Assembly (NCBI RefSeq): GCF_003324675.1
Contig: NZ_CP030918.1
Coordinates: 1,860,001 to 1,892,000, forward strand
Direction of reading: 5' to 3'
Length of the DNA: 32,000 nt
DNA from: Paracoccus suum
Lineage (GTDB): Bacteria > Pseudomonadota > Alphaproteobacteria > Rhodobacterales > Rhodobacteraceae
Numbering within the stretch: position 1 is the stretch's first letter; each line of letters begins with the position of its first letter. A model generated the notes under the pieces. The model saw nothing but the letters and a program-made list of their open reading frames with translations, made no database searches and was not told where the DNA came from. Below, in pieces: positions 5,251-29,020 of the stretch. Made by a program: the position numbers and the translations under genes.

Positions 5251-6975
5251 ATGACCCAGCCGAACCTGTCGCCGATCCCCGAACTCTATGTCAGCCCCGA
5301 CTCGGCGCAGAAACTCAAGCTTGCGGCGGGCAGCATGCCCAGCTGGGACCTGACTCCGCGCCAGATCTGCGATCTGGAACTGCTGATGAACGGCGGCTTC
5401 TCGCCGCTGAAAGGCTTCATGAACGAGGCCGACTACAACGGCGTCGTCTCGGAAATGCGGATGGCCGACGGCACCCTGTGGCCGATGCCGATCACGCTGG
5501 ACGTCAGCGAAGGTTTTGCCGGCGAGATCGAGCCGGGCACTGATATCGCCTTGCGCGATCAGGAGGGCGTAATCCTGGCCATCATGTCGGTCACCGACAA
5601 ATGGGTGCCCAACAAGAGCGTCGAGGCCGAGGGTGTGTTTGGCGCCGACGATCTGGCGCACCCGACTGTCAACTATCTGCACAACACCGCCGGCCCGGTC
5701 TACCTGGGTGGCCCGGTCACTGGCCTGCAGCCGCCGACGCATTACGATTTCCGCGGCCGCCGTGACACGCCGAACGAATTGCGCAGCATGTTCCGCAAGC
5801 TGGGCTGGCGCAAGATCGTCGCCTTCCAGACGCGCAACCCGCTGCACCGCGCGCACCAGGAACTGACCTTCCGCGCGGCCCGTGAGGCGCAGGCCAACCT
5901 GTTGATCCATCCGGTCGTCGGGATGACCAAGCCGGGCGACGTCGACCACTTCACCCGCGTGCGCTGCTACGAGGCGGTGCTGGACAAGTATCCGCAGGCC
6001 ACCACGCACCTGTCGCTGCTGAACCTCGCCATGCGCATGGGCGGCCCGCGCGAGGCTGTCTGGCATGGCATCATCCGCCGCAACCACGGTCTGACCCACA
6101 TGATCGTCGGCCGCGACCACGCAGGCCCGGGCAAGAACAGCCAGGGCAACGACTTCTACGGCCCCTATGAGGCGCAGGAGCTGTTCCGCAAGCATCAGGA
6201 CGAAATCGGCGTCGAAATGGTCGATTTCAAACAGATGGTCTATGTGCAGGAGCGCGCCCAGTACGAGCCGGCGGACGAGATCGAGGAAGGCGCGACCGTC
6301 CTCAACATCTCGGGCACCGAACTGCGCCGCCGCCTGCGCGAGGGGCTGGAGATCCCCGAGTGGTTCAGCTTCCCCGAGGTGGTGCGCGAGCTGCGTCGCA
6401 ACGCGCCGCCCCGCGCCCAGCAGGGTTTCACCGTGTTCTTCACCGGCCTTTCGGGCAGCGGCAAATCCACCATCGCCAACGCGCTGATGGTCAAGCTGAT
6501 GGAGATGGGCGGCCGTCCGGTCACGCTTCTGGACGGCGATGTAGTCCGCAAGCACCTCAGCCAGGAGCTGGGCTTCTCGAAAGAGCACCGCGACATCAAC
6601 ATCAAGCGGATCGGCTATGTCGCGTCCGAAATCACCAAGAACGGTGGCATCGCCATCTGCGCGCCGATCGCGCCCTACACCGCCACCCGCCGTTCGGTGC
6701 GCGAAATGATCGAGGCGTTCGGCGCCTTCATCGAGGTGCACGTCGCGACCTCTCTGGAAGAGTGCGAGCGCCGCGACCGCAAGGGCCTCTACAAGATGGC
6801 GCGCGAAGGCAAGATCAAGGAGTTCACGGGGATCTCGGACCCCTACGAGACGCCCGAGTCCCCCGAGCTGCGCGTCGACACCGCTGGCGTCGATGTCGAT
6901 TACGCTGCCCAGCAGGTGCTGCTGAAGCTCGAGCAGATGGGCCTGATCGGTCCGGGCAACGCGTCGGTTTCCTGA
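5251..6975 (+). CDS. sat: Bifunctional sulfate adenylyltransferase / adenylylsulfate kinase
   Basis: This is the C-terminal 574 codons of ORF 4402..6975, starting at MTQPNLSPIPELYVS. ATP-sulfurylase motifs are QTRNPLHRAH and IVGRDHAGPG. The C-terminal APS-kinase has the P-loop FFTGLSGSGKSTIA. Confidence 0.92.
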   Translation: MTQPNLSPIPELYVSPDSAQKLKLAAGSMPSWDLTPRQICDLELLMNGGFSPLKGFMNEADYNGVVSEMRMADGTLWPMPITLDVSEGFAGEIEPGTDIALRDQEGVILAIMSVTDKWVPNKSVEAEGVFGADDLAHPTVNYLHNTAGPVYLGGPVTGLQPPTHYDFRGRRDTPNELRSMFRKLGWRKIVAFQTRNPLHRAHQELTFRAAREAQANLLIHPVVGMTKPGDVDHFTRVRCYEAVLDKYPQATTHLSLLNLAMRMGGPREAVWHGIIRRNHGLTHMIVGRDHAGPGKNSQGNDFYGPYEAQELFRKHQDEIGVEMVDFKQMVYVQERAQYEPADEIEEGATVLNISGTELRRRLREGLEIPEWFSFPEVVRELRRNAPPRAQQGFTVFFTGLSGSGKSTIANALMVKLMEMGGRPVTLLDGDVVRKHLSQELGFSKEHRDINIKRIGYVASEITKNGGIAICAPIAPYTATRRSVREMIEAFGAFIEVHVATSLEECERRDRKGLYKMAREGKIKEFTGISDPYETPESPELRVDTAGVDVDYAAQQVLLKLEQMGLIGPGNASVS

Positions 6976-6997
6976 CCCGTTTGCCATCGCCGAATCG

Positions 6998-17178: not shown

Positions 17179-19353
17179 TCAGACGGCTTCGGCGAGACCC
17201 AGCTTCGCGACGAAAGCGCTGCGGTAGAGTTGCGACAACTCCGCCAATGGCGCCGCGTCACCGCCAAATGCTACCTGAGCGCCGCCAAAGCTGCCAATCC
17301 GCCGGACCGGAACGCTGGCGGAATTTGCCGCGGCCAGCAGGCTGTCGGCGTCGCCGGTCGTGCAGGCCACGAGATAGCGGGCCTGATCCTCACCGAACAG
17401 ATCGGCGATCTCGCCGGCGTCCAGCGTGACGCCGGTCCGTCCCGCCTCGGCCATCTCGAAGGCCGCGAGGGCCAGACCGCCGTCCGACAGATCGGTGCAG
17501 GCCGACAGCAGCTTACGGTTCGCGAGGATGAACTCGCCATGTTTGCGCTCGGCAGACAGGTCCACCGGCGGGGCGTCGCCACTCTCGATCCCGAAGGCTT
17601 CGTAGGCGAGGGCGGACTGGCCCAGATGGCCGCGCGTCTCGCCGATCAGGATCGCGATATCGCCGTCCTCGGGCAGGCCCGCGATCAGGTCGTCCAGCCG
17701 GTCCAGCAGGCCGACGCCGCCGATGGTCGGGGTCGGCATGATGCCCGTGCCATCCGTCTCGTTATAGAGCGACACGTTGCCGGACACGATCGGGAAGTCG
17801 AGCGCGGTGCAGGCCTCGCCGATGCCCTGGATCGCACCGACCAACTGACCCATGATCGCCGGCTTTTCCGGGTTGCCGAAGTTCAGGTTGTCGGTCGCGG
17901 CGAGCGGCCGCGCGCCGACCGCAACCAGGTTGCGCCATGCCTCGGCAACGGCCTGACGGCCGCCCTGCACCGGGTTGGCGCGGACGTAGCGCGGGGTCAC
18001 GTCGCTGGTGAAGGCAAGCGCCTTGTCTGTGCCATGGACCCGCACCACCCCGGCGCCGAGGCCGGGGCGGCGCACCGTGTCGGCGCCGACCTGGGTATCA
18101 TACTGCTCCCACACCCAGGATTTGCAGGCGTGGTTCGGGCTGCCGATCAGCGCCTTCAGCGCCGCGATGGGCGTGATGGCGGGCAAGTCCGGCATGGCGC
18201 CCGCTGCGGGGGTAGGGGTCCACGGCCGGTCGTATTCCGGCGCCGACGAGGCCAGCTTCGACAGCGGCAGGTCGGCCATGACCGAATTGCCGAGCATTAT
18301 CAGGAACCGGTCCTCGGCAATCGTCTCGCCCACGACGGCGAAATCAAGGTCCCATTTCTCGAAGATGGCGCGCGCCTCGGCCTCTTTCTCGGGCTTGAGG
18401 ACCATGAGCATGCGCTCCTGGCTCTCGGACAGCATCATCTCGTAGGCGGTCATCGCCGGCTCGCGGACCGGCACGCGGTCCAGATCGAGCCGGATGCCGA
18501 GGCCGCCCTTGTCGCCCATCTCGACCGCCGAACAGGTCAGGCCCGCCGCGCCCATGTCCTGGATCGAGATGACGCTGTCCGAGGCCATCAGTTCGAGGCA
18601 GGCCTCGAGCAGGCATTTCTCGGTGAAGGGATCGCCCACCTGCACCGTGGGACGCTTTTCCTCGATGCTGTCGTCGAACTCGGCACTGGCCATGGTCGCA
18701 CCGCCGACGCCATCGCGGCCGGTCTTGGCGCCGAGATAGACGACTGGCATGCCGACGCCCGAAGCGGCGGAATAGAAGATGCGGTCCGCCGGGGCGATAC
18801 CGGCGGCAAAGGCGTTCACGAGGCAGTTTCCGTCATAGCTGGAATGAAAGCGCACCTCGCCGCCGACGTTGGGCACGCCAAAGGCGTTGCCATAGCCGCC
18901 GATCCCCTCGACCACGCCGCGCACCAGATGGGCGGTCTTGGGATGGTCGGGGCGGCCAAAGGACAGCGCGTCCATCGCCGCCACCGGCCGCGCGCCCATG
19001 GTGAACACATCACGCAGGATGCCGCCGACGCCCGTCGCGGCGCCCTGATACGGCTCGATATAGCTGGGATGGTTGTGGCTCTCCATCTTGAAGACCACGG
19101 CGAGGCCGTCGCCGATATCAACCACGCCGGCATTTTCTCCGGGGCCGCAGATCACCTGCGGGCCGGTGGTCGGCAGGGTGCGCAGCCAGCGTTTGCTCGA
19201 CTTGTAGCTGCAATGCTCGTTCCACATCGCGGAAAAGATGCCGAGTTCCGTGAACGTCGGCGCGCGGCCCAGCAACTCGAGGATGCGTGCATATTCATCG
19301 GGCTTGAGGCCATGGGCGGTGATCAGTTCCGGCGTGATCTGTGGCTCTGACAT
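17179..19353 (-). CDS. purL: Phosphoribosylformylglycinamidine synthase subunit PurL
   Basis: The ORF 17179..19395 was trimmed to the ATG at 19353 ([11 protein letters not shown]...). Motifs [24 protein letters not shown] and ESHNHPS are present. The 724-aa length is typical of the small-type PurL. Confidence 0.95.
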
Positions 19354-19494
19354 GACCCGTTGCCCCCTTTTGGCCGCAACACGCGGCGCCTCCAAGCGCC
19401 GCGGTTCTAGCCTGCCCGAGGGGGTGGGGGAAAGGGCCCGGAAGGGTTCAGACGGTCCGACTGGATTTGCGTGTCAAGCCGCTGGACGCAGGCC

Positions 19495-19521
19495 AAAAAA
19501 AAGCCGGGCACGAGGCCCGGC
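19495..19521 (-). terminator. Strong intrinsic terminator (minus strand)
   Basis: The minus strand reads GCCGGGC-CUCGU-GCCCGGC followed by U8 (A-run 19495-19502 on the + strand). Confidence 0.85.
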
Positions 19522-19578
19522 CTAAGTCCAACAGGGAGGTGAAGCCAAGGGGTCGGTCGCCCGACCCATCGCCTTCAC
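19495..19578 (-). ncRNA. Candidate ~84-nt trans-acting small RNA (or lysR 3'UTR-derived RNA) with a CCUCCC anti-SD motif
   Basis: Minus strand: GUGAAG-GCGAU-GGGUCGG-GCGA-CCGACCC-CUUGG-CUUCAC (a 6+7 bp hairpin with a GNRA loop). This is followed by the single-stranded CUCCCUGUUGGACUUAG and then the terminator hairpin plus U8. A sigma-70-like promoter lies immediately upstream. Confidence 0.35.
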
Positions 19579-19584
19579 GAAATG

Positions 19585-19612
19585 AGATATGGCGAGAGGG
19601 GCGCCGCATCAA
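19585..19612 (-). promoter_or_regulatory. Candidate sigma-70-type promoter for the small RNA
   Basis: The minus strand reads TTGATG-N16-ATATCT, with a G 7 nt downstream (19578) that is the first base of the hairpin. It lies 32-59 nt downstream of the lysR stop codon. Confidence 0.35.
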
Positions 19613-19643
19613 GGCGTGGGTGTGCGTGCCAGGGGCAAACCCG

Positions 19644-20576
19644 CTATGCGTGTCCGGTATGGCTCTCGCCCTCGGCCACCAGAGCGTGCTGGACGCGGCG
19701 CCAGGCCTGGATTTCCTCCAGCACGAAATCGCGGAACGCAGTGACCCGGCGCGAGGCGCGCAGTTCCTCCGGAAAGGCAAGGAAAACCGGGACTTCGCCG
19801 GATTCCACGTCCGCCAGAACGCGCACTAGGCGGTTGGGAAAATCATTGGTCAGGTAGTCCGGCAGGATGCCGATCCCGACCTGCGACAGCACGGCCTGCA
19901 GCACGCCGAAGTAATTGTTCACCGCCAAGGTCGAGCGCGGATTTTGCGCGAGCAGCGTCTGCACGAGGCTGGCCCCCGCAGACACCTGCGGCGTCGTCGG
20001 ATTCTGGCAAATGATACGGTGCGTCGCGAGGTCCGAGAGCTGTTCGGGGATGCCGTTCTCGGCCAAGTATTCGGGGGTGGCATAAAGCCGCATGCGGATG
20101 TTCAGCAGCCGGCGGCGGATCAGGTCGGACTGCGACGGCTCTTTCATGCGGATCGCGACATCGGCCTCGCGCATGGGCAGGTCCAGCACCCGTTCCTCGA
20201 GCATCAGATCGATCTTGAGGTCCGGGTAGCGCGCGTAAAGGCGCGGCAGGCGCGGCACCAGCCACAGCGTGCCGAAGCCGGTCGCGGTCGTGACCTTCAA
20301 TTCGCCGAAGACATGCTCCTCGCTGTCGCGGATGCGGGCCGAGGCGGTATCAAGCCGCTTGGTGATGCTGCGCGTCGCCTCGAACAGCAACTCGCCCTGC
20401 TCGGTCAGGATCAGCCCGCGCGCATGGCGGTGAAAGAGAGTCGTCGACAGTGATTCTTCCAGCGCCCGGATTTGCCGGCTGACCGCAGATTGCGACAGAT
20501 GCAGCGCGTCGCCGGCATGGGTCAGGCTGCCGGCGTCCGCAACCGCGTGAAAGATTCTCAGCTTGTCCCAGTCCAT
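19644..20576 (-). CDS. LysR family transcriptional regulator (LsrB/VtlR-like by N-terminal signature)
   Basis: The ORF 19644..20627 was trimmed to the ATG at 20576 (MDWDKLRIFHAVADAGSLTHAGDALHLSQSAVSRQIRALEESL...FHRHARGLILTEQGE). This is a wHTH plus a LysR substrate-binding domain. The gene is divergent from the ior-family gene. Confidence 0.88.
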   Translation of the reverse strand: MDWDKLRIFHAVADAGSLTHAGDALHLSQSAVSRQIRALEESLSTTLFHRHARGLILTEQGELLFEATRSITKRLDTASARIRDSEEHVFGELKVTTATGFGTLWLVPRLPRLYARYPDLKIDLMLEERVLDLPMREADVAIRMKEPSQSDLIRRRLLNIRMRLYATPEYLAENGIPEQLSDLATHRIICQNPTTPQVSAGASLVQTLLAQNPRSTLAVNNYFGVLQAVLSQVGIGILPDYLTNDFPNRLVRVLADVESGEVPVFLAFPEELRASRRVTAFRDFVLEEIQAWRRVQHALVAEGESHTGHA

Positions 20577-20719: not shown

Positions 20720-23700
20720 ATGAGCAAACACGCCGAGTTTTCACTCGCCGACCGTTTTGACCTCACCAAGCGCAGCGTCCTGCTGAACGGCACCCAGGCC
20801 CTTGTCCGGTTGATGCTGATGCAGGCCGCGCGCGATCGGGCCGCAGGTCTGGACACCGCGGGCTTCGTCACCGGCTACCGCGGCAGCCCGCTGGGCGGGG
20901 TCGATCTGCAGATGGCCCGCCAGAAGAAAGAGCTGGCGGCCGCCAATATCCTGTTCCAGCCGGGCCTGAACGAGGACCTGGCCGCGACAGCCATCTGGGG
21001 CAGCCAGCAGGCCGAGTTGCGCGGCGAGGGGCGCCATCAGGGCGTCTTCGCTCTGTGGTATGGCAAGGGGCCGGGCGTCGACCGCTCGGGCGACGTCATG
21101 CGCCATGGAAACATGGCCGGCAGCAGCCGCTATGGCGGCGTCATCATGGCCATGGGCGACGACCACACCGGCGAGAGCAGCACGGTGCTGCACCAGTCCG
21201 ACTGGGCCATGGTCGATGCCTATATGCCCGTGCTGTCCCCGGCCGGGGTGCAGGAAATCCTCGACTACGGCCTTTACGGCTATGCCTTGTCGCGCTTCTC
21301 CGGCCTGTGGGTTGGCCTGAAGACGATGAAGGACACGGTGGAGGCGACCAGCGTCGTCGATGGCGATCCGATGCGGCTTTCTTTCGTTACGCCAGCCGAT
21401 TTCCCGATGCCCGAAGGCGGCCTGAACATCCGTCTCGGCGATACGCCGGTCATCCAGGAAGCGCGGATGATCGACCACAAGCGCTTTGCGGCCGAGGCGT
21501 TCAGCCGCGCCAACCGCATGGACAAGCGGATGTGGGGCAAGCCTGGGGCCAAGCTGGGCTTTGTGGCGGCGGGCAAGAACTGGCTGGACCTGGTCCACGC
21601 CTTTGGCCTGCTCGGCATCGACGAGGCCGAGGCCGAGCGGCTCGGCATCACCCTCTACAAGGTCGGCCAGACCTGGCCGCTGGACATGGTCAGCTTTCAC
21701 GACTGGGCCGAGGGACTGGCTGTCATCACCGTGGTCGAGGAAAAGCGCAAGCTGATCGAGGTCCAGGTCAAGGAAGCGATCTTCGACGACCGGCGCGGCC
21801 GTGTTCTGGGCTGGAAGCACGACCGGACCCATGAAGAACTGTTCCCGACCCGCTATGCGCTGGACCCGGTCGGCATCGCCGAAAAGATCGGCGGCATCCT
21901 GATCGAGGAAGGCCGTGGTACCGACGCGCTGCGCGCCGGGCTGGACCGCATCCGCGAGGCGCGCCGCGCCGACAACGCGCCCGAGATCGCCGCCCGCACG
22001 CCGTGGTTCTGCTCGGGCTGCCCGCACAACACCAGCACCCGTCTGCCCGAGGGCAGCCGCGCCTATGCCGGCATCGGCTGTCACTACATGGTGCAGTGGA
22101 TGGGCCGCGAGACCAACGGCTTCACCCATATGGGCGGCGAGGGCGTGAACTGGGTCGGCGAGGCGCCCTTCAGCAAAAGAAAGCACGTCTTTCAGAATCT
22201 TGGCGACGGAACCTACAACCATTCAGGTAGCCTCGCGATCCGCGCGGCGCTCGCCGCCGGGACCAACATCACCTACAAGATTCTGTTCAACGACGCCGTC
22301 GCCATGACCGGCGGCCAGCCGAACGAGGGCGGGCTGACCGCCGCCCAGATCGCACGCGAGTTGACCGCCATGGGCGTCGATCCGGTGATCGTCGTGCATG
22401 ACGAGAAAGAGGATGTCCGCGCCGACGACTTCCCCGGCCTGATCCTGCGTCCGCGCAGCGAGTTGATGGCCACCCAGCGCGAGCTTGAGGAGGCGCCGGG
22501 CGTCAGCGCGATCCTCTATATCCAGACCTGCGCCGCGGAAAAACGCCGTCGCCGCAAGAAGGGTGCCTTTCCCGACCCCGACACCCGCATCTGGATCAAC
22601 CCCGAGGTCTGTGAGGGCTGCGGCGATTGCAGCGTCCAGTCAAACTGCGTCAGCGTGGTGCCGCTGGACACTGCGCTGGGCCGCAAGCGTGCCATCGACC
22701 AGTCGTCCTGCAACAAGGATTACAGCTGCGTCAAAGGCTTCTGCCCCTCCTTTGTCAGCGTCCATGGCGGCAAGCCGCGCAAGCCGGCGGCTGCTGCGTT
22801 CGATCTGCCCGACCTGCCGCATCCGGTGATGCCGGCGATCCATGGCACCCATAACATCGTCATTACCGGTGTTGGCGGCACTGGCGTCGTGACCATCGGC
22901 GCAGTGCTGGCGCAGGCTGCCCAACTGGACGGCAAGGGCGCGGGCATGATGGAGATGGCGGGCCTCGCCCAGAAGGGCGGCGCTGTGCATATCCACCTGC
23001 GTCTTGCCGAAAAACCTTCCGACATAAGCGCCATCCGCGTCGCGGTGGGCGAGGCGGATTGCGTCATCGGCGGCGATCTGGTGGTCACCGCCGGGGCCCG
23101 CACCCTTGGACTAATGACCACCGGCCGCACCGGGGCCGTGGTCAACGACCATGAGATCATCACTGGCGAGTTCACCCGCGACCGCGATTTCCGCCTGCCC
23201 TCGGGGCGCCTCAAGCTCAGCCTCGAGGCGCGGCTAAAGGATCGGCTGGCCTTCTTCGACGCCTCGCAACTGGCGCTGAAGCTGATGGGGGATTCGATCT
23301 ATTCCAACATGATCGTCACCGGTGCGGCCTGGCAGCGCGGGCTGATCCCGCTGTCCGAGGTGGCGATCCTGCGCGCAATCGAGATGAACGGCGCCCAGGT
23401 TGCGGCCAATCAGCGCGCCTTCCAGATCGGCCGCTGGGCGGTGATCCACCCGGCGGACGTGGCGGCCGTGATTGCCCCGCCGGCGGCCGACACGCCTGCC
23501 GATCCGGTCGCCGACCGTGCCGCCCGGCTGGTGGGTTACCAGAACGAGGCGCTCGCCCGACGATTCATGGCGCTGGTCGATGCGGCGCCCCCGGCGCTGC
23601 GCGGCGATGTCGCCGAGGGCTATTACAAGCTGCTGGCCTACAAGGACGAATACGAGGTCGCGCGCCTGCACCTACAGACTGCCGCCCGGGTCGCCGAAAG

Positions 23701-24115
23701 TTTCGAGGGTGATGTCCGCCTGTCGTTCCATCTGGCCCCGCCGGTCCTGCCGGGACGCGATGCAGACGGGCGGCCGAAAAAGCGGACTTTCGGGCCGTGG
23801 ATGCTGCCGGTGTTCCGCGCGCTCGCCAGCCTCAAGGGCCTGCGCGGCACGCCGCTCGACCCCTTTGGTTACCTCGGTGAGCGTCGGCGCGAGCGTCAGG
23901 CGATCAGCGATTACGAGGCGATGATGCGCGAGGTGTTGCCGGCCGTCACCCCGGCCACCGAGGGTATTGCGCGCGAACTGGCGCGCCTGCCGCTGGAGGT
24001 GAAGGGCTACGGCATGATCAAGGACGCCGCCGCCGAAAAGGCCTCCGACCGGGCCGCCGAACTGCTGGCCGCGTTCCGCACCGGCGGCACGCCCCTGCGT
24101 CACGCGGCTGAATAA
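20720..24115 (+). CDS. Indolepyruvate:ferredoxin oxidoreductase family protein (fused alpha/beta)
   Basis: The ORF 20576..24115 was trimmed to the ATG at 20720 (MSKHAEFSLADRFDL...). It has LNGTQALVRL, FVTGYRGSPLGG and a TPP-type GDGTYNHSG motif. There is also a ferredoxin-like Cys cluster (CEGCGDCSVQSNC) and a C-terminal IorB-like domain. The 1131-aa length is typical of the fused form. Confidence 0.9.
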   Translation: MSKHAEFSLADRFDLTKRSVLLNGTQALVRLMLMQAARDRAAGLDTAGFVTGYRGSPLGGVDLQMARQKKELAAANILFQPGLNEDLAATAIWGSQQAELRGEGRHQGVFALWYGKGPGVDRSGDVMRHGNMAGSSRYGGVIMAMGDDHTGESSTVLHQSDWAMVDAYMPVLSPAGVQEILDYGLYGYALSRFSGLWVGLKTMKDTVEATSVVDGDPMRLSFVTPADFPMPEGGLNIRLGDTPVIQEARMIDHKRFAAEAFSRANRMDKRMWGKPGAKLGFVAAGKNWLDLVHAFGLLGIDEAEAERLGITLYKVGQTWPLDMVSFHDWAEGLAVITVVEEKRKLIEVQVKEAIFDDRRGRVLGWKHDRTHEELFPTRYALDPVGIAEKIGGILIEEGRGTDALRAGLDRIREARRADNAPEIAARTPWFCSGCPHNTSTRLPEGSRAYAGIGCHYMVQWMGRETNGFTHMGGEGVNWVGEAPFSKRKHVFQNLGDGTYNHSGSLAIRAALAAGTNITYKILFNDAVAMTGGQPNEGGLTAAQIARELTAMGVDPVIVVHDEKEDVRADDFPGLILRPRSELMATQRELEEAPGVSAILYIQTCAAEKRRRRKKGAFPDPDTRIWINPEVCEGCGDCSVQSNCVSVVPLDTALGRKRAIDQSSCNKDYSCVKGFCPSFVSVHGGKPRKPAAAAFDLPDLPHPVMPAIHGTHNIVITGVGGTGVVTIGAVLAQAAQLDGKGAGMMEMAGLAQKGGAVHIHLRLAEKPSDISAIRVAVGEADCVIGGDLVVTAGARTLGLMTTGRTGAVVNDHEIITGEFTRDRDFRLPSGRLKLSLEARLKDRLAFFDASQLALKLMGDSIYSNMIVTGAAWQRGLIPLSEVAILRAIEMNGAQVAANQRAFQIGRWAVIHPADVAAVIAPPAADTPADPVADRAARLVGYQNEALARRFMALVDAAPPALRGDVAEGYYKLLAYKDEYEVARLHLQTAARVAESFEGDVRLSFHLAPPVLPGRDADGRPKKRTFGPWMLPVFRALASLKGLRGTPLDPFGYLGERRRERQAISDYEAMMREVLPAVTPATEGIARELARLPLEVKGYGMIKDAAAEKASDRAAELLAAFRTGGTPLRHAAE

Positions 24116-25616: not shown

Positions 25617-26228
25617 ATGATGACGGTCGATCAGATCGCGGCAGAGATCGTCGCGCGTGAAGGGGGGTACGTGAACGACCCGGACGATCCGGGTGGGGCC
25701 ACGAAATACGGCGTGACACTCGCGACGCTGCAACGCCTCGGCTTCGACAAGACCGACGACCGCCGGATCGACGTTGCCGACGTCAAGGCGCTGACCCGCG
25801 AGGATGCCCGCCGCATTTTCGTAGAGCACTACTTTCGTCGCCCGCGGATCGCGGATCTGCCGGGGATCGTGCAGCCTTCGGTGTTCGACATGTATGTCAA
25901 CGCCGGCAGCAACGCGGTGAAGATCCTGCAGCGCTTGCTGGCCGGCATGGGCTTTGATGCGACGGATGATGGCCAGGTCGGCCCTCAGACCATCCGCGCC
26001 GCGCGCGAGGCGGCGCTGGCGGCGCCCCGGCACCTCGCTGACGCCTACGGCATCGCCCGGCGGAACTATTACTACAGCCTTGGCGATCTGCGCCCCGCCA
26101 GCCGCAAGTATTGCCGCCGGCACGATGGCGGCAAGGGCGGCTGGATCACTCGCGCCGAAAGCTTTGTGGCGCCGCGCTATCACCTGACATTGGCTCAGCA
26201 TAAGGCGAGGTGCGCGAAATGGGCATGA
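25617..26228 (+). CDS. GH108-family N-acetylmuramidase (holin-associated endolysin) with a PG_binding_3-like C-terminus
   Basis: The N-terminal catalytic signature VAREGGYVNDPDDPGGATKYGVT (EGGY motif) is present. There is no signal peptide or TM segment. The C-terminal half (GFDATDDGQVGPQTIRA) resembles peptidoglycan-binding repeats. The next gene overlaps its stop codon. Confidence 0.8.
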   Translation: MMTVDQIAAEIVAREGGYVNDPDDPGGATKYGVTLATLQRLGFDKTDDRRIDVADVKALTREDARRIFVEHYFRRPRIADLPGIVQPSVFDMYVNAGSNAVKILQRLLAGMGFDATDDGQVGPQTIRAAREAALAAPRHLADAYGIARRNYYYSLGDLRPASRKYCRRHDGGKGGWITRAESFVAPRYHLTLAQHKARCAKWA

Positions 26229-26872
26229 TGGACCGCCTGATTGGCGTCGGCGGCACGGTTACGGCGGTCGGCAACGCCGCCACCGGGATGGCCGAAGTGT
26301 TCCGCCAGAACACCACCCGCCGGATGGAGTTGGACGAGGAAGCCTATGCCCGCGCCATGGCCGAACATGGCACCGAGTTCGAGGCGGCCCCCCGCACTTG
26401 GTGGGACAGCCTTATGAACGGTCTGAACCGCCTGCCGCGCCCCATGCTGACGCTCGGCACCATTGGCCTTTTTGTCTACGCCATGGTCGAGCCGATCGGT
26501 TTTTCCACCCGGATGGAGGGGCTTGCGCTGGTGCCCGAGCCGCTGTGGTGGCTGATGGGTGCGATCGTCAGTTTCTATTTCGGCGCGCGCGAAGCGCATT
26601 ATTTCCGCGGCCGCGTCTGGCCGAGCGCCAAGGTGAAAAAGACCGTCGCCGCGTCCAGCCAAGGCGGCGCGGTGGTCGCAGCTGAGGTCGAGGCCGCATC
26701 GGGCGATCCCTTGGGCGAGGCGCTGGCGGCGGCCATGGCATCGGGCGACGCGGTAGTCGGCGGGCCCGGTGGTGCCGATGTAACGGGTGCCTCAGCCCCC
26801 GGCCGGGTGCGGGGGCCGGAGCCTTTCGCCGACAATCCCGCCTTGGCCGAATGGGCCGCGCAGCGGTCCTGA
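26219..26872 (+). CDS. 3TM-type (GTA-associated) holin family protein
   Basis: Its position overlaps the endolysin stop. The N-terminal segment is MDRLIGVGGTVTAVGNAATGMAEVFR, followed by NGLNRLPRP. Two clear hydrophobic helices follow (MLTLGTIGLFVYAMV and LWWLMGAIVSFYFGA). The start was chosen at ATG 26219 (GAGG 8 nt upstream); GTG 26210, ATG 26225 and ATG 26228 are alternatives. Confidence 0.7.
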   Translation: MGMMDRLIGVGGTVTAVGNAATGMAEVFRQNTTRRMELDEEAYARAMAEHGTEFEAAPRTWWDSLMNGLNRLPRPMLTLGTIGLFVYAMVEPIGFSTRMEGLALVPEPLWWLMGAIVSFYFGAREAHYFRGRVWPSAKVKKTVAASSQGGAVVAAEVEAASGDPLGEALAAAMASGDAVVGGPGGADVTGASAPGRVRGPEPFADNPALAEWAAQRS

Positions 26873-27049: not shown

Positions 27050-29020
27050 ATGATCGCCGAACTGGGCCATTTCGCCCTCATCCTCGCCTTTGCCGTATCG
27101 CTCTGGCAGATGAGCGTGCCGATGTGGGGCGCGGCGCGCGGCAACATGGCGGCGATGGAGAGCGCGCGGCCTGCCGCCGCGGCGCAGTTCGGGCTGATCG
27201 GCATCAGCTTCGCGGCGCTGACGGTCGCCTTCGTGACCTCCGACTTCTCGCTCAAGCTGGTCTACGAGAACAGCCATACCCTGAAGCCGATGCTCTACAA
27301 GGTCAGCGGCGTCTGGGGCAATCACGAGGGCAGCATGCTGCTGTGGGTGCTGATCCTGTCGCTGTTCGGCGCCGCGGCGGCAACCTTTGGCGATAACCTG
27401 CCGCCCGCGCTGCGCGCGCGGGTACTGGCGGTGCAGGGTTCGATCGGTGCGGCCTTCCTCGCGTTCATCCTGTTCACTTCGAACCCATTTTTGCGGATGG
27501 TGAACCCGCCCTTTGACGGGCGCGACCTGAACCCGCTGCTGCAGGACCCCGGCCTCGCGTTCCATCCGCCGTTCCTTTACCTCGGCTATGTCGGCCTCTC
27601 GATGTCCTTCAGCTTTGCCGTCGCCGCCCTGATCGAGGGCCGGGTCGACGCCGCTTGGGGGCGTTGGGTGCGTCCCTGGACGCTCGCCGCCTGGGTGTTC
27701 CTGACCATCGGCATCGCGCTGGGCTCGTGGTGGGCCTATTACGAGCTTGGCTGGGGCGGCTTCTGGTTCTGGGATCCGGTCGAGAATGCCAGCTTCATGC
27801 CGTGGTTGCTGGCCGGCGCGCTGGTCCATTCCGCGGTCGTGGTCGAAAAGCGCGAGGTGCTGAAAAGCTGGACCATCCTGCTTGCGATCCTCGCCTTCGC
27901 CTTCTCGCTGATCGGCACCTTTATCGTCCGCTCTGGCGTCATCACCTCGGTCCACAGCTTTGCCAGCGATCCGACCCGCGGCGTGGTGATCCTCGGCATC
28001 CTTGCGGTGTTTGTCGGCGGCGCACTGACGCTGTTCGCCGCCCGCGCCAGCACCCTCAGCGCGCGCGGCGTCTTTGCCCCCGTCTCGCGCGAGGGGGCGC
28101 TGCTGGTGAATAACGTGCTGCTCGCAGTGGCCGCGCTGGTGGTGTTCATCGGCACGGTCTGGCCACTGCTGGCCGAGATGTGGGGCCGCCGGCTGTCGGT
28201 CGGCGCGCCGTTTTTCGAGCAGGCCTTCACGCCGTTCATGGTGGCCATCGCCTTGATCCTGCCGATCGGCGCGATCCTGCCGTGGAAGCGCGGCAACCTC
28301 GCCCGCGCGCTACGGCCGCTACGTCCGGCACTGGCTCTGGCCTTTGCGGTGATGGCGCTGGTGTTTGCCGTGTCGAGCGGCCGCAGCGCGCTGGCGGTGA
28401 TTGGTGCCGGCCTCGGCTCGTGGCTGATCTTCGGCGCGCTGGCTGAGCTGGTCTACCGCACCAACAACGGCGGCTGGTCGCGCCTTACGCGCTTGCCGCG
28501 GGCCGACTGGGGCAAGGCACTGGCGCATGGCGGGCTGGGGGTGACCTTTATCGGCGTCAGCCTGATCATGGCCTGGCAGATCGAGGATATCCGCGTCGCC
28601 AAGGTGGGCGAGACGTTCGACGTCGGCACCTACCAGATAACGCTTGCCTCGGTCGAGGATCTGCCTGGCCCCAACTACACCGCGACGCGGGCCGAGATGC
28701 GGGTCAGCCGCAACGGTCGCGAGGTCGCGGTCATGCATCCCGAAAAGCGGTTCTATCCGGTGCAGGGGATGCCGACGACCGAGGCCGCGATCGACAACGG
28801 TATCTTCCGCGACCTGTACGTCGTGATCGGCGATCCGCAGGCACAGGGCGGCTGGGCGGTGCGCAGCTACGTAAAACCGTTCGCCAACTGGATCTGGGCG
28901 GGCGCGATCATCATGGCGCTCGGCGGCTGCCTCAGCCTGTCGGACCGGCGCAGCCGCGTCGCCGCCGGCGCGCGTCGGCAGCCCCATCCCGCCGCCCGTG
29001 GCGCGGTGCCCGCCGAATGA
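27050..29020 (+). CDS. ccmF: Cytochrome c heme lyase subunit CcmF
   Basis: A 656-aa polytopic membrane protein with the WWD motif WGGFWFWDPVENASFMPWL. A GGAG Shine-Dalgarno sequence lies upstream. Confidence 0.95.
   Translation: MIAELGHFALILAFAVSLWQMSVPMWGAARGNMAAMESARPAAAAQFGLIGISFAALTVAFVTSDFSLKLVYENSHTLKPMLYKVSGVWGNHEGSMLLWVLILSLFGAAAATFGDNLPPALRARVLAVQGSIGAAFLAFILFTSNPFLRMVNPPFDGRDLNPLLQDPGLAFHPPFLYLGYVGLSMSFSFAVAALIEGRVDAAWGRWVRPWTLAAWVFLTIGIALGSWWAYYELGWGGFWFWDPVENASFMPWLLAGALVHSAVVVEKREVLKSWTILLAILAFAFSLIGTFIVRSGVITSVHSFASDPTRGVVILGILAVFVGGALTLFAARASTLSARGVFAPVSREGALLVNNVLLAVAALVVFIGTVWPLLAEMWGRRLSVGAPFFEQAFTPFMVAIALILPIGAILPWKRGNLARALRPLRPALALAFAVMALVFAVSSGRSALAVIGAGLGSWLIFGALAELVYRTNNGGWSRLTRLPRADWGKALAHGGLGVTFIGVSLIMAWQIEDIRVAKVGETFDVGTYQITLASVEDLPGPNYTATRAEMRVSRNGREVAVMHPEKRFYPVQGMPTTEAAIDNGIFRDLYVVIGDPQAQGGWAVRSYVKPFANWIWAGAIIMALGGCLSLSDRRSRVAAGARRQPHPAARGAVPAE

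Follow-up and report, generated by a model that had tools for sequence, protein, structure and literature searches.

A probable orthologue of the small RNA SorY beside an LsrB/VtlR-related LysR gene in Paracoccus suum

What kind of RNA is encoded by a compact unit on the minus strand of the Paracoccus suum genome, where a promoter, a hairpin, an unpaired C/U-rich stretch and a terminator lie between the stop codon of a lysR gene and purL? We analysed a stretch of 32,000 nucleotides (nt) around this unit (contig NZ_CP030918.1, positions 1,860,001 to 1,892,000; hereafter the window, numbered from its first letter). A preliminary description made from the letters alone had proposed a small RNA (sRNA) with an anti-Shine-Dalgarno motif, and all the features that it had placed between the end of lysR (stop codon TAG, ending at 19644) and purL were found where it had put them. 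Its view that no equivalent had been described in Rhodobacteraceae could not be kept: two sRNAs of this kind, SorY and SorX, have been described, have Rfam models and match the element. We conclude, with a probability of about 0.82, that the element is the orthologue of SorY (RSs1543) in a Paracoccus-type genome, and its best-supported interpretation is that of an RpoH-driven, Hfq-dependent, trans-acting sRNA. The sRNA itself is thus already known, from a family member characterised in Rhodobacter sphaeroides, and is here extended to a Paracoccus-type genome. The parts of the unit are the following.

19585 to 19613, minus strand: RpoH (sigma-32)-type promoter, with CTTGATG (-35) at 19613-19607 and CATATCT (-10) at 19591-19585
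19495 to 19576, minus strand: predicted SorY-type sRNA of about 82 nt, with +1 at G19576 (+/-2 nt) and the 3' end in the U8 tract
19541 to 19576, minus strand: 5' two-tier hairpin, with a GAAG...CUUC base and a variable interior
19522 to 19540, minus strand: single-stranded seed ACCUCCCUGUUGGACUUAG, with the invariant 15-mer ACCUCCCUGUUGGAC at 19540-19526
19495 to 19521, minus strand: Rho-independent terminator, GCCGGGC at 19521-19515, CTCGT, GCCCGGC at 19509-19503 and T8 at 19502-19495

Direct reading of the minus strand gave an outer stem in which GTGAAG (19578-19573) faces CTTCAC (19544-19539) and an inner stem in which GGGTCGG (19567-19561) faces CCGACCC (19556-19550) across a GCGA loop. 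This hairpin folds in two tiers as proposed earlier, but the conserved part of the stem is GAAG/CUUC, the extra A-C pairs belonging to the invariant seed, and the GNRA loop that had been pointed out is present in the window and varies among relatives. The 17-nt unpaired stretch, CTCCCTGTTGGACTTAG (19538-19522; as RNA CUCCCUGUUGGACUUAG), and the terminator GCCGGGC-CUCGU-GCCCGGC-U8 were also present, and the latter was the single site returned by a terminator scan. The 84-nt RNA had a folding energy of -46.3 kcal/mol (z = -4.8 against dinucleotide shuffles), and none of 200 shuffles folded equally well. In the minimum free energy fold, the only pairing of the seed was a weak, invariant CC/GG of 2 base pairs (bp). 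The CCUCCC motif that had first drawn attention does lie in a single-stranded C/U-rich seed, but the conserved seed reaches beyond it, to 15-17 nt. A 15-codon open reading frame (ORF), MGRATDPLASPPCWT, runs from an ATG at 19569 to a TAG at 19522 on the same strand and spans hairpin and seed; its reading as a small 15-aa peptide was ruled out by hairpin indels and by the absence of sequence conservation.

A generic sigma-70 promoter scan detected no promoter at the unit, because the promoter is of the RpoH type. The hexamers TTGATG (19612-19607) and ATATCT (19590-19585), separated by 16 nt, had been reported before; they are present but, judged by their sequence context, belong to an RpoH-type and not to a generic sigma-70 promoter, which with its flanks reads CTTGATG-N15-CATATCT. 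The determinants of RpoHI/RpoHII recognition are C-37, TTG at -36 to -34, C-14, T-13, A-12 and T-9 (PMC3441632). The window promoter carries C-37, the TTG, T-13, A-12 and T-9, so that C-14 is the only determinant missing. Among the matches listed in the genome scan described below, 91 of 121 loci had CTTGA[A/T]N-N15-C[C/A]TA[A/T][A/T]T before the element, always at the same distance. The Sinorhizobium meliloti RpoH1 consensus, CTTGAA-N16-CCTATAT, has the same form as these SorY-type promoters (PMC8844928). A G stands at 19578, seven nt after the second hexamer, where the start had been placed previously, but the RpoHI/II register gives G19576, at which transcription probably starts.

SorY of R. 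sphaeroides is an unprocessed, Hfq-bound RNA of about 86 nt with its own RpoHI/RpoHII promoter and terminator, and it represses takP (PMC4615379, PMC6238624, PMC8307010). Its published transcription start is position 1,632,642 of chromosome 1. The window element shares with SorY an RpoHI/II-type promoter, a length of about 82-86 nt, the succession of 5' hairpin, unpaired seed and terminator, and a seed, ACCUCCCUGUUGGACUU, identical to the SorY consensus. It also occupies the same LysR-sRNA-purL slot as the copy of Cereibacter azotoformans, which scored 111.4 bits, just over the SorY gathering score of 111, and whose neighbours are 74% (LysR orthologue) and 79% (purL) identical to their window counterparts. 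The window RNA and Cereibacter SorY were identical in 62 of 85 aligned columns, the differences falling mainly in the hairpin interior and a few in the terminator. It is because the LysR-sRNA-purL synteny, the element's own RpoH-type promoter and its 5' hairpin all match the Cereibacter copy that we assign orthology with SorY. In agreement with this assignment, the layout of a self-contained Hfq-type sRNA, which had been recognised beforehand, is borne out by an orthologue that is experimentally Hfq-dependent and trans-acting (PMC4615379).

How widely the element is conserved was examined in a scan of a genome collection for the seed and terminator start, ACCTCCCTGTTGGAC-N2-5-GCCG. This pattern was found in at least 120 genomes, compared with about 17 matches expected by chance according to our own calculation. 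All but one of the matches listed fell into two fixed syntenic contexts in Rhodobacterales, and the named sources among them were all Rhodobacterales genera, except for a Streptomyces coding-region match and one metagenome-assembled genome (MAG). This MAG, labelled Limisphaerales, shows the LysR (70%), SorY and purL (82%) arrangement and is probably a misbinned contig, not an occurrence in Verrucomicrobiota. In 88 of the loci listed (group A), an orthologue of the window LysR (58-81% identity) lay just upstream on the same strand, with the aligned LysR end at most 350 nt from the seed in 85 of the 88. In about 25 others (group B), the element was preceded instead by a gene with Response_reg and Trans_reg_C domains.

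Since the seed-based scan forced the presence of the seed, an independent sample of 80 metagenome loci was collected through the LysR protein alone. A covariance model, R1, built from 24 group A sequences found exactly one copy in the window (69.7 bits over 19494-19575) and, among the 80 independent loci, recovered the element behind the LysR orthologue in 73; of the other seven, three were truncated contigs. Of 74 evaluable loci, 65 had the exact 15-mer seed and two more a single mismatch. Taken together, at least 150 genomes and metagenome contigs keep the seed invariant. Selection on it is evident. Four metagenome loci (L144, L148, L164 and L166) have LysR orthologues of 76-78% identity followed by a region without the sRNA. 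L164 and L166 retain a GAAGG... start and a different hairpin, with the seed missing. These absences look like lineage-specific losses.

The fold was conserved along with the seed. A hairpin of at least 6 bp was formed by 89 of 90 relatives. As a plain MAFFT alignment of 86 copies scrambled the variable hairpin, covariation was evaluated in the independent loci on a covariance-model alignment. There, standard pairs occupied 93.7% of cells, compared with 31-52% when partners were slid by 1-3 columns, and compensatory changes were seen in 220 cells against at most 40 in the slid controls, although an alignment fitted to the model makes these figures lean towards the structure. Both-sided changes occurred at 17 of 21 pairs, including all 13 pairs of the hairpin; in the terminator, the paired share was 98.4% of cells, and 4 pairs showed G-C to A-U swaps. 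An independent RNAalifold run, on an alignment made with MAFFT, arrived at this fold too, and 12 of its 23 pairs were compensated.

A scan of the whole window against Rfam, a check suggested in the preliminary description, yielded one above-threshold match, to SorX (RSs2461; RF02784) at 19496-19553, with 52.7 bits (gathering score 46.6). The element might on this basis be SorX itself or a product of lysR read-through, and with no terminator between the two, read-through from lysR must include the element. We regard this explanation as improbable. In the SorX alignment, only 4 nt stand in for 20 model positions of the inner hairpin, and its span is confined to 19496-19553, whereas in a permissive scan of the region the SorY model (RF02651) aligned over its full length (model 1-83) with 19494-19575, at 45.2 bits. 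Bona fide SorX copies, those of group B, reached 57-90 bits and lie behind an OmpR-type regulator gene, in line with the published position of SorX (PMC6238624), whereas the gene upstream of the window element encodes a LysR-type regulator and not a Response_reg plus Trans_reg_C protein. The Paracoccus-type copies of group A gave only marginal SorX matches of 48-52 bits, like the window. Each RNA also scored on the other's model, true SorY with 44 bits and true SorX with 35 bits, and we read the SorX label as cross-talk, because the two RNAs share a module of seed and terminator: SorX carries the same 15-nt seed, letter for letter, and a GGCCGGGC terminator that closely resembles that of the element. 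In addition, the window element has its own conserved RpoH promoter and the SorY-type GAAG/CUUC hairpin. SorX of R. sphaeroides is matured by RNase E from a 116-nt precursor (PMC6238624). A slightly better chance, though still a small one, goes to the element being a Rhodobacterales branch of the alpha-r8 (MmgR/SuhB) family and not a member of a separate family. The suhB/mmgR model (RF00519) was the third-best match in a permissive local search (33.0 bits, E = 3.6e-5), aligning CCUCCCU, GACUU and the terminator. MmgR/SuhB RNAs, which are Hfq-dependent, resemble the element in their short 5' hairpin, their unpaired CCUCCCU and their terminator; in Sphingopyxis, SuhB has a LysR-type activator, which the SuhB preprint does not link to LsrB. 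However, the match fell short of the gathering score (41), on the same model true SorY and SorX reached only 24 and 21 bits, and the likeness is limited to an anti-Shine-Dalgarno core and a terminator common to many sRNA models. The extended UGUUGGAC part of the seed is missing from MmgR/SuhB, whose published regulators are also different (NtrC and AniA in S. meliloti).

The position of the element directly 3' of lysR, for which it provides the only terminator, would suit a third view, in which it is just the lysR terminator and 3' untranslated region with a chance promoter-like motif and no independent functional RNA. A plain terminator would not hold a 15-nt unpaired stretch invariant while the adjacent hairpin drifts and covaries, nor would a phased RpoH promoter be retained, and the orthologue SorY is a proven trans-acting sRNA; we therefore consider this view very improbable. 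Because lysR has no terminator of its own, its read-through transcripts must end at the sRNA terminator, and a processed isoform derived from them is possible, though not needed to account for the element. There is equally little to recommend a cis-acting leader or attenuator of purL, which would draw on the terminator lying on the purL strand 141 nt upstream of the purL start. Among 50 evaluable relatives, purL was within 500 nt of the element in 19, at 0.5-5 kb in 22 and absent from the locus in 9, compared with the LysR end within 350 nt in nearly all group A loci; no alternative antiterminator fold was evident, and no purine riboswitch or leader family matched in the Rfam scans. As for the AbcR/alpha-r15 and CcsR sRNAs, to which the element had been likened, no such model matched it in the permissive scan of the region, for AbcR/alpha-r15 even at E <= 10. 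The sole CcsR1 match lay outside it, at 19378-19444 on the minus strand in the purL 5' region, where a C-rich stretch, CCCCCACCCCC, gave 14.9 bits against a gathering score of 65.3, which is at chance level.

Several points weigh against the assignment to SorY and the function attached to it. SorX is the only formal Rfam call, and the SorY gathering score of 111 is far above the 45.2 bits of the window; the hairpin interior and terminator stem differ in their letters from SorY, which explains why the narrow Rfam model gives such a low score. Without a terminator between the lysR stop and the sRNA, the RNA pool may come partly from lysR read-through and processing. The lean of the covariation figures mentioned above belongs here as well. 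Expression, Hfq dependence and targets in this organism would follow from homology with SorY. As the host is probably not phototrophic, the singlet-oxygen role of SorY cannot be carried over directly, and singlet oxygen is, unlike for SorY, an unlikely trigger in a Paracoccus-type host. Finally, a search of the 32-kb window for seed-complementary target sites found none beyond the gene itself and one 8-mer.

On the reading of the element as a SorY orthologue, an RpoH-family sigma factor would start transcription near G19576 under heat, oxidative or other stress, as the promoter sequence suggests. The transcript of about 82 nt would end at the intrinsic terminator, and by homology its U-tail and 5' hairpin would give Hfq binding and stability. 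The invariant ACCUCCCUGUUGGAC(UU) would then pair with the Shine-Dalgarno sequence and upstream region of transporter mRNAs and lower their translation and stability. SorX, which like SorY is an RpoHI/II-dependent, Hfq-bound stress sRNA repressing transporter mRNAs, has a validated target in potA, a polyamine-transporter ATPase gene. The target of SorY in R. sphaeroides is takP, encoding the binding protein of a TRAP (tripartite ATP-independent periplasmic) transporter, and its repression limits substrate import during stress (PMC4615379). SorY acts on takP through nt 39-75, with the takP seed at nt 39-52 (PMC4615379), and the nt 39-75 region is identical in the window element. The gene lowered most strongly by SorY overexpression was RSP_2400, encoding a putrescine ABC (ATP-binding cassette)-transporter ATPase, whose predicted site at -13 to +2 pairs with SorY nt 35-51 (PMC4615379). 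The seed shared by SorX and SorY would explain overlapping effects of this kind; it predicts overlapping regulons for the two sRNAs and offers a clean input for comparative target prediction. Some Rhodobacterales have tandem pairs of SorX-type elements, spaced by about 115-170 nt, in which both copies carry the same seed and a terminator of their own (L003 at 3775/3890; L038 at 6933/7105; L020 at 6779-6800 and 6911-6985). Among the loci examined, the LysR (SorY) locus showed no such pairs.

The conserved neighbour of the sRNA raises the further question of whether the LysR protein is tied to it functionally. The features that bear on this point are given below.

19644 to 20576, minus strand: gene for an LsrB/VtlR-related LysR-type regulator of 310 aa (Pfam HTH_1 and LysR_substrate), starting MDWDKL... 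at ATG 20576
19635 to 19660, minus strand: phased half-sites ATaC-N7-GCAT-N7-tTGC, operator-like, overlapping the lysR stop codon
20666 to 20686, either strand: palindrome TGGGTCA-N7-TGACCTA, TGGGTCACAGTTTCTGACCTA, in the divergent lysR/IOR intergenic region, outside the sRNA unit
20720 to 24115, plus strand: indolepyruvate ferredoxin oxidoreductase (IOR)-family gene, 1131 aa (NCBIfam NF009589, 1454 bits; Pfam POR and DUF6537), divergent from lysR

The resemblance of this LysR to LsrB/VtlR, pointed out in the preliminary description, proved real in part. The best solved relative was PDB entry 9HH1 (E = 1.8e-73, 250 bits over residues 1-293; the next LysR-type transcriptional regulator, or LTTR, reached 108 bits), which is the cryo-electron microscopy structure of Agrobacterium tumefaciens LsrB (PMC11975290). 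Identity to LsrB was 41% overall and 49 of 64 residues (77%) in the DNA-binding domain, and 162 Rhodobacterales orthologues of the window LysR were 37-44% identical to LsrB. However, the window LysR has neither the trxB linkage nor the redox cysteines of LsrB. Cys144 and Cys273 of LsrB are replaced by Val and Ala; across the 162 orthologues, position 144 was V/L/I in 160, Met in one and Cys in one, and position 273 was Ala in all. The rhizobial arrangement is trxB-lsrB-abcR1-abcR2, with a trxB-lsrB linkage described as constant in Rhizobiales (PMC7486931, PMC11975290), whereas the window lysR lies outside any trxB operon and is divergent from the IOR-family gene. NCBIfam yielded no equivalog for the LysR, and a homologue search returned only Paracoccus proteins named 'LysR family', uninformative for LsrB/VtlR naming. 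We place the protein in an LsrB-related clade, orthology with LsrB itself not being established.

Operator-like motifs were sought upstream of the sRNA. Ahead of their -35 element, SorY-type promoters carry ATGC/GCAT half-sites, which lie at -47, -36, -25 and -11 when counted from the C of CTTG; such phased half-sites were enriched 4.6-fold over random windows. ATGC-N7-GCAT was present in 68% of SorY-type promoters compared with 0.6% of random windows, and GCAT-N3-GG-N3-T in 60% compared with 1.3%, at a fixed position, -73/-72 from the predicted transcription start; in the window this box is GCATAGCGGGTTT (19649-19637), at -73. The common form is one base off the published VtlR/LsrB box, GCAT-N3-TG-N3-T, which was found in 6% of SorY-type promoters and 0.5% of random windows and which lies at -61 to -49 in PabcR1 (PMC8844928, PMC7486931). 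As the position of the lysR stop codon varies between loci, the constraint on the motif acts on DNA. The divergent lysR/IOR region has a conserved LTTR-style palindrome of its own, TAGGTCA-N7-TGACCTA: [AG]GTCA-N7-TGAC[CT] occurred in 87 of 123 such regions and is probably the operator of the IOR-family gene, of lysR or of both. The idea that this lysR promoter palindrome (GGTCA-N7-TGACC) also stands upstream of the sRNA was ruled out (0 of 123 sRNA promoter regions), as was the presence of GCAT dyads in the lysR promoter region (1 of 155).

These observations leave room for a tentative proposal, which we think rather less probable than its converse, that the LsrB-like LTTR, or another LsrB-like protein, forms with SorY a conserved regulator-sRNA module in Rhodobacterales and co-controls sorY. 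In such a module, the candidate LTTR would bind the ATGC/GCAT half-sites at about -84 to -45 and modulate RpoH-dependent transcription of sorY. The module would be homologous in design to the VtlR/LsrB-AbcR pair of Rhizobiales, and in descent only possibly so. AbcR sRNAs repress mRNAs of nutrient-uptake transporters (PMC7486931, PMC8844928); AbcR2 is RpoH1-dependent and AbcR1 LsrB-dependent (PMC8844928). The two systems are alike in that a gene for an LsrB-related LTTR is followed by a gene for an anti-Shine-Dalgarno sRNA on the same strand, and the window combines an RpoH-type promoter like PabcR2 (CTTGAA-N16-CCTATAT) with an upstream GCAT-type box like PabcR1. In contrast, the window has one seed where AbcR has two anti-Shine-Dalgarno motifs, a single gene instead of a tandem pair, an LTTR without the trxB operon or the two cysteines, and a box that departs by one base from GCAT-N3-TG-N3-T. 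The element therefore resembles the AbcR-LsrB module in layout and logic but is not an AbcR.

If the module is real, SorY and SorX would be sibling sRNAs with one seed and overlapping transporter targets, and the statement that LsrB-type regulators are unique to Rhizobiales, made in a paper that denies relatives of LsrB elsewhere (PMC11975290), would be contradicted. As an sRNA the finding is an ordinary one, and what matters most is the LsrB-like/GCAT-box link and the lesson for Rfam. The fresh point is that the conserved neighbour gene of SorY encodes a relative of rhizobial LsrB/VtlR; together with the GCAT-type operator at -73, it provides a testable hypothesis that Rhodobacterales, too, may use the LTTR-to-anti-Shine-Dalgarno-sRNA circuit known in Brucella, Agrobacterium and Sinorhizobium. 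The Rfam SorY model is too narrow and the SorX model mislabels SorY orthologues, which matters for the annotation of Rhodobacterales. The accessible literature, which did not cover the primary SorX paper or the first VtlR paper, contained no statement that SorX and SorY share a seed, none of an order-wide linkage between SorY and an LsrB relative, and none that such relatives occur outside Rhizobiales, so that earlier authors may have priority on these points.

The downstream neighbour of the sRNA is purL.

17179 to 19353, minus strand: purL (NCBIfam PurL, 965 bits), start most likely at ATG 19353

A 493-aa ORF on the minus strand (up493, 20741-22222), seemingly conserved by tblastn, was rejected as a shadow ORF antisense to the IOR-family gene, antisense ORFs in high-GC DNA being able to mimic conservation. 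Farther along, and unrelated to the sRNA, a GTA_holin_3TM gene for a gene-transfer-agent release holin (26210-26872, plus strand) adjoins ccmF (27050-29020). Genes for a PAS_5 protein, a guanylate kinase, a histidine kinase and an M3 peptidase, likewise unrelated to the sRNA, lie elsewhere in the window.

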